A stretch of DNA of 64,000 nt. Source: Heptranchias perlo (Eukaryota). Location of the stretch: assembly GCF_035084215.1 (NCBI RefSeq), contig NC_090330.1, forward strand, positions 105,834,001 through 105,898,000, given 5' to 3'. Both the position numbers and the translations under genes were made by a program. The stretch's first letter is position 1. Every line of letters begins with the position of its first letter. Positions 22,639 through 58,583 of this stretch are shown here, one piece after another. The notes under the pieces are model-generated. The model was not told the origin of the DNA and searched no databases. It was given only the letters and a program-made list of their open reading frames with translations.

Positions 22639-22966
22639 CCTTGAGAAGGTGATGGCGGGCCACCTTCTTGAACTGCGTGAAGCAGTTTGATACAACTGAG
22701 TGGTTTGCTCGGGCCGTTAAGTGTCAACCATGTTGGCGTGGGACTGGAACCATACGTAGACATTCGTGAACCAGTTGGGTTTTAATGACAATCTGACAGC
22801 TTCATGTTCACTTTTACTGATACCGGCATTTTCTTTCCAGATTTTTTAAACTGAATTCAAGTGCTTAAACTGCCACGAAGGCGATTTGATCTCACATCCT
22901 CCAGATTATTAGTCCAGGCCTCTGTATTACTAGCCCAGTAACATAACCACTACACCGCTGTGCCCC
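22639..22966 (-). mobile_element. tRNA-headed SINE-like deletion derivative of the LINE at 51722-55183
   Basis: 5' part aligns to the LINE 5' UTR (tagtggttatgttactgggctagtaat...ccactcagttgta) and joins the LINE 3' end (ttcaagaaggtggcccgccatcaccttctc). Confidence 0.8.
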
Positions 22967-44804: not shown

Positions 44805-45562
44805 TATCCGTCTTTCGGATGAGACGTTAAACCGAGGCCTGGTCTGCCCCTCTCGGGTGGACGTAAAAGATCCCATGGCACTATTTGAAGAAGGGCAGGA
44901 GAGTTCTCCTGGTGTCCTGGCCAATATTTATCCCTCAACCAACATCACTAAAAAACACAAAAGAAAGACTTGCATTTATATAACGCCTTTCACAACCTCA
45001 GGACATTCTAAAGTGCTTTACAGCCAATGAAGTACATTTTTTTGCAGTGTAGTCGCTGTTGTAATATAGGAAATGTGGCAGAGCAAGCTCCCACAATATG
45101 ATAATGACCAGATAGTCTGTTTTAGTGGTGTTGGTTGAGGGACAATTCCCTTGCTCTTCTTTGAAACAGTGCCATGGGATCGTTTACATCCATCTGAGAG
45201 GGCAGATGGGGCCTCAGTTTTAATGTCCCATCCAAAAGACGGCACCTCTGACAGTTCAGTGCACCCTCAGTACTGCACTGGAGTATCAGCCTGGATTTTA
45301 TGCTCAGGTCCCTGGAGTGAAACTTGAGCCCACAATCTTCTGATTCAGAGGCGAGAGTAGCTGCCCACTGAGCCACACCCGACACGTGACCTGGTCATTG
45401 TCTCATTGCTGTTTGCGGGATCTTGCTGTTTGTAAATTGGCTGCCACGTTTCCTACATTACAACAATGGCTACACTGCAAAAGTGCTTCATTGGCTGTAA
45501 AGCACTTTGGGACGTCCTGAGGTCATGAAAGGAGCCGTATAAATGCAACTCTTTCTTTCTTT
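44805..45562. mobile_element. Nested Deu-SINEs: a plus-strand copy interrupted by a minus-strand full copy (~44960-45385)
   Basis: Deu core on + at 44805-44950, full SINE on -, then the + tail resumes at ~45388-45562. Confidence 0.75.
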
Positions 45563-50704: not shown

Positions 50705-50960
50705 CTGTCAGCTGCAGCTCAGTTGGTGGCAGTCTTGCCTCTTGCACTCTCGCCTCTGAGTCAGAAGGTTGTGGCCTCAAGTCCCACTCCAGAGACCTGA
50801 GAGCACATAATCTAGGCTGACATTCCAGTGCAGTACTGAGGGAGTGCTGCATTGTCAGAGGTGCTGTCTTTCAGATGAGATGATAAACCGAGGCCCCGTC
50901 TGCCCTCTCAGGTGGACGTAAAAGATCCCATGGCAATATTTCAAAGAAGAGCATGGGAAT
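50705..50960 (+). mobile_element. Deu-domain tRNA SINE 5' part
   Basis: gcagctcagttggtggc head and Deu core caggtggacgtaaaagatcccatggc. Confidence 0.8.
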
Positions 50961-51729
50961 TATTTTTCTTCTTATTTGGAAAAATATGAGAACAGTTTCA
51001 TTGTTCCCAATATTTCTCAGTAAATTTTCACTTGAGGGTATATAGGGCAATAGGTGATGTGGTGGCAAGTGCATTGACATACTTCTGTGTAATTGTAAAC
51101 CTTGTAAATAAATTTGACGACTACTTTCGGTTTGAAATATACAATCTAAAACAATGTTGCTGTCTATCTTTTGCAGATGACAGGAGTACATGGTGAGTAA
51201 CCTGAGCAACCTCGGGTGCAAAGTAACTTGGTAAAAGGGCAATTTTCAATTCTGCAGCATGCTACTGAATAAAGGGGGTGTGGATCTGCTGATGGAAAAT
51301 GCTTTTTACTGTGAACATGGATAAAGGGAGTTGGGAGGTGGCCTGAATTCTATCAGCTCTGTTCTTTCCCATCTAGCAAAGTTCTTGGTCTCACAATCTC
51401 TTCTGATCTCAAGAGGACTCCCACATCTCCATTGCTAACGCTGCTTCCAAAAAGCTTGATATCCTTTTTCATGCCAGATACTTTTTTTCTGCTCAATAAC
51501 TCTTAATTCTCTTTAAAGCCCAAGTCTGTGTAAGATTGAATATTGTTTCTATACCTGGGGAGACACTTTTAGCATCTCTTTGACATGCCTGGAAAAGATG
51601 CAAGAAAAAGCTTTGAGGTTATAGCTCACTTCTGACCTCCAACCTTTCTTGTCTTTGTTTAATTGATAGTACTATAGTTAGTATCCTCGGAGCATTCCTT
51701 ACTTCCTTGTAAGTGTTCTTAGGGTACGG

Positions 51730-51803
51730 TAGCATAGTGGTTATGTTACTGGGCTAGTAATCCAGAGGCCTGGACTAAAATCCAGAGTCATGAGTTCAAA
51801 TCC
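51730..51803 (+). promoter_or_regulatory. Pol III type 2 internal promoter (A box and B box)
   Basis: A box TAGCATAGTGG 51730-51740 fits TRGCNNARYGG; B box AGTTCAAATCC 51793-51803 approximates GGTTCGANTCC. Confidence 0.7.
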
Positions 51804-52046
51804 CGCCACGGCAGCTGGCGAATTTAAATTCAATTAATTAATTAAAAATTCAATTAATTAAATAAAAATCTGGAATTAAAATACTAGTATCAGTAATGAT
51901 GGCCATGAAACTACCGGATTGTCGTAAAAACCCATCTGGTTCACTAATGTCCTTTAGGGAAGGAAGCCTGCCGCCCTTACCCGGTCTGGCCTATATGTGA
52001 CTCCAGACCCACATCAATGTGGTTGATTCTTAATTGCCCTCTGAAA

Positions 52047-52168
52047 TAGAGTCATAGAGTTATAGAGTTATACAGCACGGATAGAGGCCATTCGGCCCAT
52101 CGTGTCCGCACCGGCCATCAGCCCTGTCTACTCTAATCCCATATTCCAGCATTTATAGAGTCATAGAG
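52047..52168 (-). mobile_element. Short CR1 3' tail inserted in the LINE leader
   Basis: atagagtc/atagagtt octamer repeats and gaggccattcggcccatcgtgtc; flanked by gaaat duplication. Confidence 0.7.
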
Positions 52169-52197
52169 AAATGGCCAAGCAAGCCACTCAGTTGTAA

Positions 52198-55119
52198 AAT
52201 CTCACTACGAAAAGTCATCATAAGAATAAAACCGGACGGACCACCCGGCATCGGACCACTAGGCACCGGACACGACAACGGCAAAACACCAAGCCCAGTC
52301 GACCCTGCAAGGTCCTCCTCACTAACATCTGGGGACTTGTGCCAAAATTGGGAGAGCTGTCCCACAGACTAGTCAAGCAACAGCCTGACATAGCCATACT
52401 CACAGAATCATATCTTTCAGCCAACGTCCCAGACTCTTCCATCACCATCCCTGGGTATGTCCTGTCCCACCGGCAGGACAGACCCACCAGAGGTGGCGGT
52501 ACAGTGATATACAGTCAGGAGGGAGTGGCCCTGGGAGTCCTCAACATTGACTCTGGACCCCATGAAATCTCATGGCATCAGGTCAAACATGGGAAAGGAA
52601 ACCTCCTGCTGATTACCACCTACCGTCCTCCCTCAGCTGATGAATCAGTCCTCCTCCATGTTGAACACCACTTGGAGGAAGCACTGAGGGTAGCAAGGGC
52701 ATAAAATGTACTCTGGGTGGGGGACTTCAATGTCCATCACCAAGAGTGGCTCGGTAGCACCACTACTGACCGAGCTGGCCGAGTCCTGAAGGACATAGCT
52801 GCTAGACTGGGCCTGCGGCAGGTGGTGAGCGAACCAACACGAGGGAAAAACTTACTTGACCTCGTCCTCACCAATCTACCCGTCGCAAATGCATCTGCCC
52901 ATGACAGTATTGGTAGGAGTGACCACCGCACAGTCCTCGTGGAGATGAAATCCCGTCTTCGCACTGAGGACACCATCCAACGTGTTGTGTGGCACTACCA
53001 CCGTGCTAAATGGGATAGATTCAGAACAGATCTAGCAGCTCAAAACTGGGCATCCATGAGGCGCTGTGGGCCATCAGCAGCAGCAGAATTGTATTCCAGC
53101 ACAATCTGTAACCTCATGGCCCGGCATATTCCTCACTCTACCATTACCAACAAGCCAGGGGATCAACCCTGGTTCAATGAGGAGTGTAGAAGAGCATGCC
53201 AGGAGCAGCACCAGGCGTACCTAAAAATGAGGTGCCAACCTGGTGAAGCTACAACTCAGGACTACATGCATGCTAAACAGCGGAAGCAACATGCTATAGA
53301 CAGAGCTAAGCGATTCCACAACCAACGGATCAGATCAAAGCTCTGCAGTCCTGCCACATCCAGTCGTGAATGGTGGTGGACAATTAAACAACTAACGGGA
53401 GGAGGAGGCTCTGCAAACATCCCCATTCTCAATGATGGCGGAGTCCAGCACGTGAGTGCAAAAGACAAGGCTGAAGCGTTTGCAACCATCTTCAGCCAGA
53501 AGTGCCGAGTGGATAATCCATCTCAGCCTCCTCCCGATATCCCCACCATCACGGAAGCCAGTCTTCGGCCAATTCGATTCACTCCACGTGATATCAAGAA
53601 ACGGCTGAGTGCACTGGATACAGCAAAGGCTATGGGCCCTGACAACATCCCAGCTGTAGTGCTGAAGACTTGTGCTCCAGAACTAGCTGCGCCTCTAGCC
53701 AAGCTGTTCCAGTACAGCTACAACACTGGCATCCACCCGACAATGTGGAAAATTGCCCAGGTATGTCCTGTCCACAAAAAGCAGGACAAATCCAATCCGG
53801 CCAATTACCGCCCCATCAGTCTACTCTCAATCATCAGCAAAGTGATGGAAGGTGTCGTCGACAGTGCTATCAAGCGGCACTTACTCACCAATAACCTGCT
53901 CACCGATGCTCAGTTTGGGTTCCGCCAGGACCACTCGGCTCCAGACCTCATTACAGCCTTGGTCCAAACATGGACAAAAGAGCTGAATTCCAGAGGTGAG
54001 GTGAGAGTGACTGCCCTTGACATCAAGGCAGCATTTGACCGAGTGTGGCACCAAGGAGCCCGAGTAAAATTGAAGTCAATGGGAATCAGGGGGAAAACTC
54101 TCCAGTGGCTGGAGTCATACCTAGCACAAAGGAAGATGGTAGTGGTTGTTGGAGGCCAATCATCTCAGCCCCAGGACATTGCTGCAGGAGTTCCTCAGGG
54201 CAGTGTCCTAGGCCCAACCATCTTCAACTGCTTCATCAATGACCTTCCCTCCATCATAAGGTCAGAAATGGGGATGTTCGCTGATGACTGCACAGAGTTC
54301 AGTTCCATTCGCAACCCCTCAGATAATGAAGCAGTCCGAGCCTGCATGCAGCAAGACCTGGACAACATCCAGGCTTGGGCTGATAAGTGGCAAGTAACAT
54401 TCGCGCCAGATAAGTGCCAGGCAATGACCATCTCCAACAAGAGAGAGTCTAACCACCTCCCCTTGACATTCAACGGCATTACCATCGCCGAATCCCCCAC
54501 CATCAACATCCTGGGGGTCACCATTGACCAGAAACTTAACTGGACCAGCCATATAAATACTGTGGCTACGAGAGCAGGTCAGAGGCTGGGTATTCTGCGG
54601 CGAGTGACTCACCTCCTGACTCCCCAAAGCCTTTCCACCATCTACAAGGCACAAGTCAGGAGTGTGATGGAATACTCTCCACTTGCCTGGATGAGTGCAG
54701 CTCCAACAACACTCAAGAAGCTCGACACCATCCAAGATAAAGCAGCCCGCTTGATTGGCACCCCATTCACCACCCTAAACATTCACTCCCTTCACCACCG
54801 GCGCACTGTGGCTGCAGTGTGCACCATCCACAGGATGCACTGCAGCAACTCGCCAAGGCTTCTTCGACAGCACCTCCCAAACCCGCGACCTCTACCACCT
54901 AGAAGGACAAGGGCAGCAGGCGCATGGGAACAACACCACCTGCACGTTCCCCTCCAAGTCACTCACCATCCCGACTTGGAAATATATCGCCGTTCCTTCA
55001 TTGTCGCTGGGTCAAAATCCTGGAACTCCCTTCCTAACAGCACTGTGGGAGAACCGTCACCACACGGACTGCAGCGGTTCAAGAAGGCGGCTCACCACCA
55101 CCTTCTCGAGGGCAATTAG
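52198..55119 (+). pseudogene. APE endonuclease-reverse transcriptase ORF with an in-frame stop at 52702-52704
   Basis: Continuous frame with LLTNIWGL, ILTES, YRPP, GDFN, LDL, SDH (APE) and KAMGPD, NYRPISLL, QFGFR, DIKAAFD, GVPQGSVLGP, FADD (RT). Confidence 0.92.
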
Positions 55120-55323
55120 GGATGGGCAATAAATGCCGGCCTTGCCAGCGACGCCCACATCCCGTGAACGAATAAAAAAAAAAGAAACTCAAAATTGTGG
55201 AACTTATGTCCTATGTCTCTCTCTCTTTTGTCCCTTTAACAATCTTCAGGATTTTAAAACCAACACTTGTTGTCACCTATTTTTTGATTTACCTTGTCTT
55301 TGTCTTTTTCCCCTTTCAACTTT

Positions 55324-55412: not shown

Positions 55413-58106
55413 TTTCAACTTTGGTGGTGTTCCCTTCAACTTGGGGAAATGATATATATTAGTAAATCTCATGATGTTGCTTTTTTCCTGTAACTATCTG
55501 CTCATCTCCCACTCTCTAATTATTTCTATTTCCTGCTCTTGGTCTTGTTTTACTGCTTGTCTTTCTTTCTTTCTGCCTCCCTTTTCTCTCTCTATCTTTT
55601 TTGACTTTCATTCTTTCTCTCAATCTCTCCTTCACCTCTTTCTACTTGATGTCTCCCAGTCTGTGTCATTCACATACTCGTTCTCTATCTTCCTGCATGT
55701 CTGCCACTCTCTCCTTTTCTTCTCACTTACAAAAGAGACTAGAACTGATTCATGACTTCAACCCTGAAATGATCTTGTCTCCATGGGTATGAAGCCATGG
55801 ATCTTCACTCAAACATCACTTTGGAAGAGCATGGGCACTGGAGAAACACTAGTCAGATGTATCACTATGTGTTGGTGATATTGTAAACATGGCAGGAAAA
55901 TTTACTATGTTAGTTATTTCTAGCAAAATCTTGAAAGTATTCTAAAAAAAAGGTTTATGGTATTGGTAAAGATAGAAATCACAGGAAATCTTCCTGCTAT
56001 GTTTACGTTGTTGATAGCACATAGTAACCGGAAGAGATCTTCTTGCCAGTAGATTGCTTTCAATCTTGGGCAGTACCCCTGAACTTGCATCCAACAGCTC
56101 TCACTGGTCTGTTTGTAAAGGCCTTCTTTTCGAACCTATTTATGATTTTGCGAGAGATAGCAAACAGACGGGGATCCTCACATATGCATTCACAATGTCG
56201 CTCTACACAGAATCCAGAGGCACTATTCCCCCAGTATTATCAGGGATGTTAGAAGATATGGGGTAGGTTCTATAAACTTGTCCTCTTGCTCTTGTCTTTC
56301 TGTTTGTCTGCTGGGAATATGAATGACCTCACTGGTGCCGTCAATGCCATTCTGTGGAATGACATGACAGTTCGGTGACAGAATTCCCAGTGGATTTTCC
56401 TGCCCCTGAGATGGAGTGCGTAGAAATGCCACTGTAGAGAAATCACTAACTTATAACACAGAACACAAACGAATTCCCTGTACTCTACAGGCAATAATGA
56501 ATACATTGGTGTTACTGTAATCAAGAGACCAGTTTGTCTTGACTGATTAAGTCAAATTTTGTTTTTATTACCATGGATTCTGGATTTTGGGGATCGCATT
56601 ATTTGATTCTATCTGTAGTCAGTAAAAACTGAATACCAGCACCCTTGAAGAGAACTCCAGTCACATAGAACTAGAAATTACTGTTGGTTAGTGTCAGTGG
56701 GAGAACATTTAGGGAACAGCGATCATAGTATCATAAGGTTTAGAATAGTTATGGAAAAGGACATGGACCACTCTAAAGTAAAAATACTCAATTGGACTCA
56801 ATACTCAACAGTTGTTTTTTGGACTGGGGGGAGGTGTACGGTGGTGTTCCCCAGGGATCGGTGCTGGGACCACTGCTTTTCTTGATATATATTAATGACT
56901 TGGACTTGGGTGTACAGGGCACAATTTTCAAATTTGCAGATGACACAAAACTTGGAAGTGTAGTGAACAATGAGGACGATAGTGATAGATCTCAAGTGGA
57001 TATAGACAGGCTGGTGGAATGGGCAGGCATGTGGCAGATTAAATTTAACGCAGAAAAGTACGAAGTGATATATTTTGGTAGGAAGAAAGAGGAGAGGCTG
57101 TATAAACTAGAGGGCACAATTCTAAAAGGGGTACAGGAACAGAGAGATCTGGGGGTATATGTGCACAAGTCGTTGATGGTGGCAGGACAGATTGAGAAAG
57201 TGGTTAAAAAAGCAGACGGGATCCTGGGCTTTATAAATAGAGGCATAGAGTACAAAAGCAAGGAAGTCATGATGAACCTTTATAAAACACTGTTACGACC
57301 ACAACTGGAGTATTGTGTCCAGTTCTGGGCACCGCACTTTAGGAAAGATGTGAAGGCCTTAGAGAGGGTGCAGAAAAGATTTACTAGAATGATTCCAGGG
57401 ATGAGGGACTTTAGTTACGTGGATAGACTGGAGAAGCTGGGGTTGTTCTCCTTGGAACAGAGAAGACTGAGAAGTGATTTGATAGAGGTATTCAAAATCA
57501 TGCAGGGTCTAGACAGAGTAGATCGAGAGAAACTGTTCCCATTGGCGGAAGGTCAAGAACCAGAAGACATAGGGCTCGATATTAGCACCCGCTATCGGGT
57601 GCGTTCCTGCCGGGGGGGGCTCCGAAAATCGGGGAATCCCGGAGCGGGTCAGGAGCCCGGCTCCAACCCGCCCACTTCCGGGTTCCCCACAGACGCGCTG
57701 ACGTGCGCGCGCAGCCCCCGCATGTGGGACTCCCGCAGGCAATTAAAGCCGGCGGGGTGCCACTTAAAAGTATTTTTTCTGGTATTTCAGGTCGTTAACA
57801 GACCTGATTAAGGAGATATTTTACATGGGGTGGGATTTTACAAACAGCTAGGACTGTTTCCCGTACTGGGGGAAACACTCCCAGTTCAAATGGACGTGTT
57901 GCAGCCATCAGCCTGTGGCAGCTGCAAAGGTCCATTTGACAGGTGGTGGAGGGGGGAGACCCTCACTCATTGCAGGAGGCCACTCTGTTACTTGGGACAA
58001 AGTTTGGCCTCCACCACCCTCCTCCCAGCAATCAAATTCACAAACTTGCACACTTACCCCGGGGTCCAGAGACGTGTACCTACCTTGCGGACCCCCTCAG
58101 ATGTAC

Positions 58107-58583
58107 ATCTTCCGGATGGGGGCCGCTGTAGCTTCAGTCATGACCTCCTCGGAGGACGAACAGCTTCGGCGGCCACGCCGTCCACCTCTGACACGTGGAA
58201 CTCCACAACACAGTGCTGTGACACATCCACCTGCACAGCAGGAGGGAGGGCAACCACAGAGAGAGATGCGTCGCAGAGGGCACTACCCTCGCCACAGGGT
58301 CCACAGACCGAGGCTCAGCTTCCTGGACCTCTCTGAGCAGCAGTGCACACGGAGGCTCAGAGTCACTCGACATGTAGTCGTGGACATCTGCAGCCTCCTT
58401 CATGCCGAGCTGCTCCCAGCTGGCCCGAGCACCATCTTCTTACCTGTCACTGTCAAAGTCACCACTGCCCTCAACAACTTCTCCTCCGCATCCTTCCAGG
58501 GTGCCACTGGGGACATCGCCGACATCTTTCAGTCATCTGCACAAAAGAGCCCTGTAAATACACCTACACCCACTCTGCAGTGA
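58107..58583 (+). pseudogene. Harbinger (HARBI1-like) transposase N-terminal fragment
   Basis: RVHRPRLSFLDLSEQQCTRRLRVTR...LPVTVKVTTALNNFSSASFQGATGDIADIFQSS; catalytic DDE region absent. Confidence 0.8.

Follow-up and report, generated by a model that had tools for sequence, protein, structure and literature searches.

The stretch of DNA analysed here, referred to as the window, comprises 64,000 nucleotides of contig NC_090330.1 of the shark Heptranchias perlo. It contains a LINE with a tRNA-like head and a single open reading frame (ORF), as well as a short, decayed element on the opposite strand that is built of related parts (Table 1). Three further short elements in the window match the published Deu motif. 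At 57890-58583 (+), two overlapping ORFs of 148 and 160 codons lie in a GC-rich repeat, which by eye resembles a Harbinger-type transposase fragment; a stretch similar to it flanks locus L007.

Table 1. Positions of the short element, the LINE and the Deu-bearing copies in the window.
Feature	Position	Strand	Remarks
Decayed old short element, junction type J1	22639..22966	-	comprises tRNA-like head, leader of the LINE and beginning of its 3' end
tRNA-like head of element	22882..22966	-	A and B boxes; weak Rfam tRNA match on the head of the LINE
A box of element head	22957-22947	-	motif read from the letters
Anticodon-like loop CTAGTAA (AGT, Thr) of element head	22933-22927	-
B box of element head	22893-22882	-	core base altered
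Old-subfamily LINE leader in element	22679..22881	-	gaps of ~40 and ~12 nt; not a Deu domain
LINE 3' piece (last ORF codons) in element	22639..22678	-	blastn match to window LINE
Deu-domain SINE match	44805-44826	+	published Deu motif
Deu-domain SINE match	45224-45245	-	published Deu motif
Deu-domain SINE match	50861-50882	+	published Deu motif
Full-length young tRNA-headed single-ORF LINE	51722..55184	+	ends in poly(A); no TTTT run on + strand
LINE head and leader	51722..52197	+	split by insertion 52048-52167
A box of window LINE head	51730-51740	+
B box of window LINE head	51792-51803	+
Inverted CR1 3' end, later insertion in LINE leader	52048..52167	-	120 nt
Endonuclease and reverse-transcriptase frame of window LINE	52198..55119	+	no ATG ahead of endonuclease domain

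Anatomy of the short element

In blastn, the element is collinear with the window LINE, the head and leader being 72% identical over 219 columns (E 2e-27). Two extra leader matches (E 0.004 and E 4e-4) extend this alignment, and the second ends at CCACTCAGTTGTA. The leader part stops a few codons inside the open frame of the LINE. The 3' piece matches the last codons of the window LINE at 83% over 41 nt (E 2e-7), with a score of 47 compared with a best score of 30 among 500 shuffles. The jump to these codons that had been described earlier is not direct, because about 16 nt between the leader match and the 3' match have no counterpart in the window LINE. These nucleotides correspond to the leader of an older LINE subfamily, which continues TCAAACCGCTAC, followed by the start of the 3' piece. 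Relative to the window LINE, the junction at 22679/22678 omits about 2.86 kb, equivalent to positions 52209-55071.

The short, tRNA-headed family to which the element belongs (J1) has a full length of ~440 nt. In the window copy, the terminal ~65 nt and the poly(A) that are typical of its family are missing, and the two internal gaps listed in Table 1 are present as well. Due to the changed core base of its B box, the promoter of this copy is likely dead. The element is confirmed as a copy of a tRNA-headed short element that has decayed and has lost its 3' terminus.

A LINE family with a tRNA-like head

The leader-to-ORF join of the young LINE has 2,579 exact matches in the genome, compared with none for the control. 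When the genome was searched with this join, the leader stood directly before the ORF in the best 29 of 29 other copies; 18 of them start within 7 nt of the tRNA +1 position, and the remaining 11 are truncated within the head or leader. With the head as query, the best 29 of 29 other matches continue into the ORF as well, which means that the head does not occur in SINE form only. That head and ORF came together at 51722 by chance, against which the sequence-only reading had argued, is ruled out by these 29 copies and the exact joins. The tRNA-like head is thus shown to be the LINE family's own 5' end in this genome, the contig pieces listed for other organisms not bridging the join.

Of 20 long young copies that were fetched, 19 span the distance from head to poly(A), most of them at about 3.3 kb. 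A frame of 973 codons is intact in two of the 20 (L092 and L106) and contains the Pfam domains PF03372, PF14529 and PF00078, which represent endonuclease and reverse transcriptase. The parent-type LINE family accordingly combines both activities in one intact frame, as expected of an autonomous APE-type LINE. The frame of the window copy carries a stop at 52702-52704. Its CR1-tail insertion is private, being absent from the 29 other copies among the 30 compared, and is apparently flanked by a 5-nt duplication. Target-site duplications were found in one of 20 young short copies and in none of 20 long copies; consequently, it is the shared junctions and the poly(A) ends that speak for insertion as a unit. 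Young full-length copies (L115, L123, L022 and L013) often adjoin copies of the same LINE or sit inside them.

The proteins nearest to the ORF are 34-44% identical to it and mostly unnamed, the named ones coming from sponge and crab. A shark aldo-keto reductase gene model (P0032) contains ~220 residues of the ORF, which probably reflects either an erroneous annotation or the exonisation of a copy. A head with both A and B boxes is absent from all 80 distant metagenome LINE loci (23-44% identity, often 5'-incomplete, from 1/64 of the collection), and most of these loci have many runs of four T. Among these distant and often incomplete loci, a tRNA head common to the whole clade found no support. 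Since the distant loci are headless, the lineage must have gained its head by some fusion at some time, to judge from these sequences, either from a tRNA or from an earlier SINE. The statement of the sequence-only reading that fusion was not involved consequently applies to the birth of the short subfamilies discussed below, but does not extend to how the head first arose. The leader motif gave no matches in prokaryote and viral contigs.

The head is a putative tRNA relative. ARAGORN called no tRNA in the window, and the match of the LINE head to the Rfam tRNA model is weak (18.7 bits against a gathering score of 29, E 0.3-0.53). Both the A box and the B box were read from the sequence as motifs, and the anticodon loop is of Thr type. 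Neither an IRES nor a ribozyme was found in the leader with Rfam, and its predicted fold is only mildly stable (z -2.07).

A putative use of this head as an RNA polymerase III (Pol III) promoter can be approached through T runs, since four T are the usual vertebrate Pol III stop according to the available text of PMC3141230. The coding strand of the LINE contains five runs of at least three T, compared with 12 expected from codon shuffles (p 0.002). It contains no run of four, compared with 3.5 expected (p 0.013) or, under a stricter null, 2.0 expected (p 0.08), at which the deficit of T4 alone is not significant. Runs of A, C and G are not depleted under the codon shuffle. Among the long copies, which are not independent of one another, 16 of 20 are free of any T4. 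Old LINE copies follow the same trend (29 T4 runs vs 71), and CR1 pieces of the window show no depletion (24 vs 17.5). The avoidance of T runs suggests Pol III transcription, and transcription of the whole LINE by this polymerase would be the simplest reading of the depletion combined with the usual stop signal. The odds that the LINE is a Pol III unit are put at about even.

Translation of such a transcript would be unusual. In the intact frame, Met does not occur before residue 250, which lies beyond the endonuclease domain; consequently, a non-AUG start or reinitiation would be needed. A basic N-terminal extension precedes the endonuclease in L106 (658-1410) and in L092, as it does in P0002 and P0003, which start with Met. 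The short upstream ORF in the leader that the sequence-only reading mentions is not a fixed feature, as a TAG at its third codon interrupts it in 11 of 20 young LINE copies; a functional uORF is unsupported. At this codon, which follows ATG-GCC in the leader (L091-L110), TAG is replaced by AAG in six of 20 copies and by GAG in three of 20, and the codon is more variable than neighbouring sites.

Parentage and birth of the short forms

The element's best 29 other genome matches include 23 short head-plus-tail elements, four matches to the head only, one unscored match and one long LINE (L045). The latter led to an older LINE subfamily, whose identity to the young subfamily is about 80%. At all 30 loci of this older subfamily the sequence continues into the ORF, and at 12 or more it extends back as far as the tRNA part. 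The older leader continues with exactly the bases found in the element's otherwise unmatched gap, and J1 joins that point of the older leader directly to the LINE 3' end. Copies with this deletion junction were counted, and J1 is exact at 55 loci (control 0).

Sites that discriminate between the two subfamilies allow the parentage to be assessed. At 21 such sites in the head, with the search motifs excluded, the window copy carries 18 old and two young alleles; its tail is too short to sort, with one old and one young allele. As far as these alleles tell, the parent of the copy is the older subfamily, which shares its head with the young LINE, and the LINE at 51722 belongs to a sister subfamily of that parent. 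Derivation of the element from the LINE at 51722 is ruled out by the 18 old vs two young alleles. In the groups as a whole, with the columns of the search patterns removed, 25 of 25 J1 heads and one of 25 young short heads lie nearer to the old LINE, although the short-form sets were chosen by subfamily-specific junction motifs and clean cases may still be favoured. At tail sites, the corresponding counts are 22 of 25 and 0 of 25, with only six old tails available for comparison. At both ends, short forms go with the LINE subfamily of the same age.

The families were dated by divergence from the group majority, which is about 11-12% for the old LINE and J1 and about 2% for the young forms; these are low estimates owing to a homologous-span filter, and the order of old and young is not polarised by an outgroup. 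Many large private internal deletions are seen in old LINE copies (L061-L090, L278-L297). Further junction types with intermediate heads occur (L246-L252, L032-L057) and suggest additional middle-aged LINE subfamilies, each with its own short forms.

Young short forms were found at 159 loci with a pattern that places the young leader end within 70 nt of the tail. The 25 that were fetched are mostly complete elements of ~450 nt, from the first base to the poly(A). In L106 coordinates, the commonest junction is 341>3214, which by eye accounts for about 41 of 100 among the matches listed; the 25 mapped copies also include 352>3214, 341>3225, 340>3215 and about 343>3187 or 3196. A shorter junction type has seven matches. 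Junctions that map cleanly show overlaps of 0-3 nt. Because 352>3214 and about 343>3187 are not nested, both require a longer parent and neither can be derived from the other by deletion. Some young junctions could nevertheless stem from one longer short intermediate and not in every case from the LINE.

Repeated birth by internal deletion is supported by an AU test, in which a single clade of short elements was rejected in comparison with grouping by age class (delta lnL 162). The test comprised 75 of 84 head rows, nine having been dropped because of short coverage, 309 columns and 2,000 replicates, where the program advises 10,000. Assemblies of four other organisms cover the head, ORF and tail. 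Head-to-tail joints without inserted letters lie at several positions in three of them, and the fourth has joints with unresolved middles; the joint 653>3569 is present in 17 and 15 contigs of two of these organisms.

These observations support the sequence-only reading that the short element was born by internal deletion of a LINE; the deletion origin stands, and the parent changes from the LINE at 51722 to the older subfamily. With a probability of roughly 85%, the short family arose by a deletion of ~2.9 kb from an older tRNA-headed LINE subfamily and then likely spread with the enzyme of the LINE. The steps proposed for this process draw on the anatomy of the elements and on known LINE retrotransposition. 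Reverse transcription would start at the LINE 3' end and jump, at microhomologies of 0-3 nt, to a point just past the leader, leaving a short copy. Such a product would keep the internal A/B-box promoter as well as the 3' recognition tail for the LINE protein. It would consequently be a ready-made SINE without a new tRNA capture, and some of the short copies may have become masters. Both the LINE and its short forms would be made by Pol III, and the LINE protein would begin at a non-AUG codon. The wider picture of an autonomous LINE with a tRNA-type Pol III promoter, a 3.3-kb unit purged of terminators, AUG-less translation and repeated one-deletion births of complete SINE families is given only slightly better than even odds.

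The order of events could also be reversed, in that an ordinary SINE with tRNA head, body and LINE tail came first, a LINE later captured its front, and the element descends from that SINE. One capture did occur, given that distant relatives of the ORF are headless, and exact J1 joins exceed the matching exact joins of the long old-LINE form (32 loci), in a comparison without an outgroup. However, the J1 bases run in frame into the old LINE ORF, the young LINE visibly yields the same kind of product, and a single clade of short elements is rejected, so that a SINE-first origin is considered improbable. Module swapping offers another route, by which one long-lived SINE lineage would exchange parts with LINE RNA through template switching or gene conversion and its ends would track the subfamilies without new births. 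The differences between old and young forms at both ends and at the junction leave no older SINE in the young forms, and a switch from the tail to the LINE 5' end would yield what a deletion yields. Even though such swapping is well documented among SINEs in the available parts of PMC5499810 and PMC5786205 and other junction types with intermediate heads exist, this route is judged slightly less probable than a SINE-first origin. Least probable of all is that the element represents one old LINE insertion whose middle was lost later in the chromosome and which was never mobile as a short element: old LINE copies often carry large private deletions and this copy has lost other parts too, but its junction agrees in position and length with J1, which is exact at 55 other places, and its best matches are mainly the 23 short head-plus-tail elements.

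Known systems and implications

The closest known case of birth by deletion is Persaeus, a SIDE that was born several times by deletion from Zenon LINEs in Lepidoptera (PMC6740152, available text). In both systems, the short elements combine the two ends, 5' and 3', of a LINE of ~3.3 kb, end in poly(A) and were born repeatedly and independently. They also cluster with the parent LINE and not with other short elements, and they show microhomology at the break. The shark LINE fits the Zenon table of that paper by its length of 3.3 kb, a likeness that concerns length and not a reverse-transcriptase tree, and CR1-Zenon-like LINEs are mentioned in the available part of a whale shark preprint. The shark element agrees with SIDEs in that both of its ends come from one autonomous LINE with nothing foreign between them, the old leader being joined directly to the 3' end. 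It was amplified after the deletion, as seen from the exact J1 junctions, and it groups with its parent LINE in the allele counts and the AU test. According to the available text, Persaeus has no homology to tRNA, 5S or 7SL and no Pol III promoter. In contrast, the shark parent LINE begins with a tRNA-like head, in which A and B boxes are present and the match to tRNA is weak, so its deletion product has the anatomy of a SINE. Like SINE2 elements, members of the shark family are short and non-coding, share their tail with a LINE and have an A-rich end, the window copy being without its terminal ~65 nt. The element therefore joins two known kinds, SIDE and SINE.

Bov-tA and the SINEs derived from RTE and Vingi have a tRNA head followed by LINE 5' and 3' parts, and the shark element shares this order (PMC5786205, available text). 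In the model of Kojima given in the same source, a bipartite LINE made by Pol II comes first and the small-RNA head is added later by template switch. In the shark, unlike these SINEs, the head is already present on the full-length coding LINE, so that one deletion is enough.

The Deu-SINEs SacSINE1 and LmeSINE1 of sharks and coelacanth resemble the element in that SacSINE1 is likewise a short element, abundant in sharks, that combines a tRNA head with a tail derived from a LINE (PMC5499810, available text). The body of the window element has no Deu domain, unlike theirs, and the element hence belongs to a different family. Identity of its body with SacSINE1/Deu was rejected, as the published Deu alignment (supplement of PMC7245038, as far as available) matches the three other window elements and not this one. 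Those three show no similarity to the element or to the LINE head (best E 0.39). They are likely the true SacSINE1-like family of this genome.

HE1 and HER1 are not known to share more than their tail, and HER1 is a CR1. The shark pair described here resembles them as a SINE and a LINE with a common 3' end, whereas its LINE ends in poly(A) and not in a CR1 microsatellite; its identity to a CR1 fragment in the window amounts to 39% over 105 residues. HE1 and HER1 are listed for sharks and rays in the available part of PMC3747384. No description of a tRNA-headed coding LINE, of this family or of this route to a SINE was found in the open literature, including the available parts of PMC10886601, PMC4824008, PMC11481361, 10.1101/443036 and 10.1101/596502, and Repbase and Dfam may hold them. 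What is new is the pairing of LINE and short forms at two ages, the series of junctions and the rejection of the Deu label.

According to the available text of PMC5786205 and PMC10886601, SINEs are usually regarded as chimeras that join a small-RNA head to a LINE tail and whose body has no known source, and LINEs are taken as Pol II units. In the present case, the head, body and tail would all come from one coding LINE. The birth of the short forms is visible at two ages in one genome, with the young forms only about 2% from their parent. SINE birth thereby becomes testable, since parent and product lend themselves to comparison in their junctions, promoter use and mobility. On this reading, a protein-coding Pol III transcript of 3.3 kb is to be expected. 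If the LINE is indeed transcribed in this way, the heads and bodies of some SINEs would be inherited 5' ends of LINEs.
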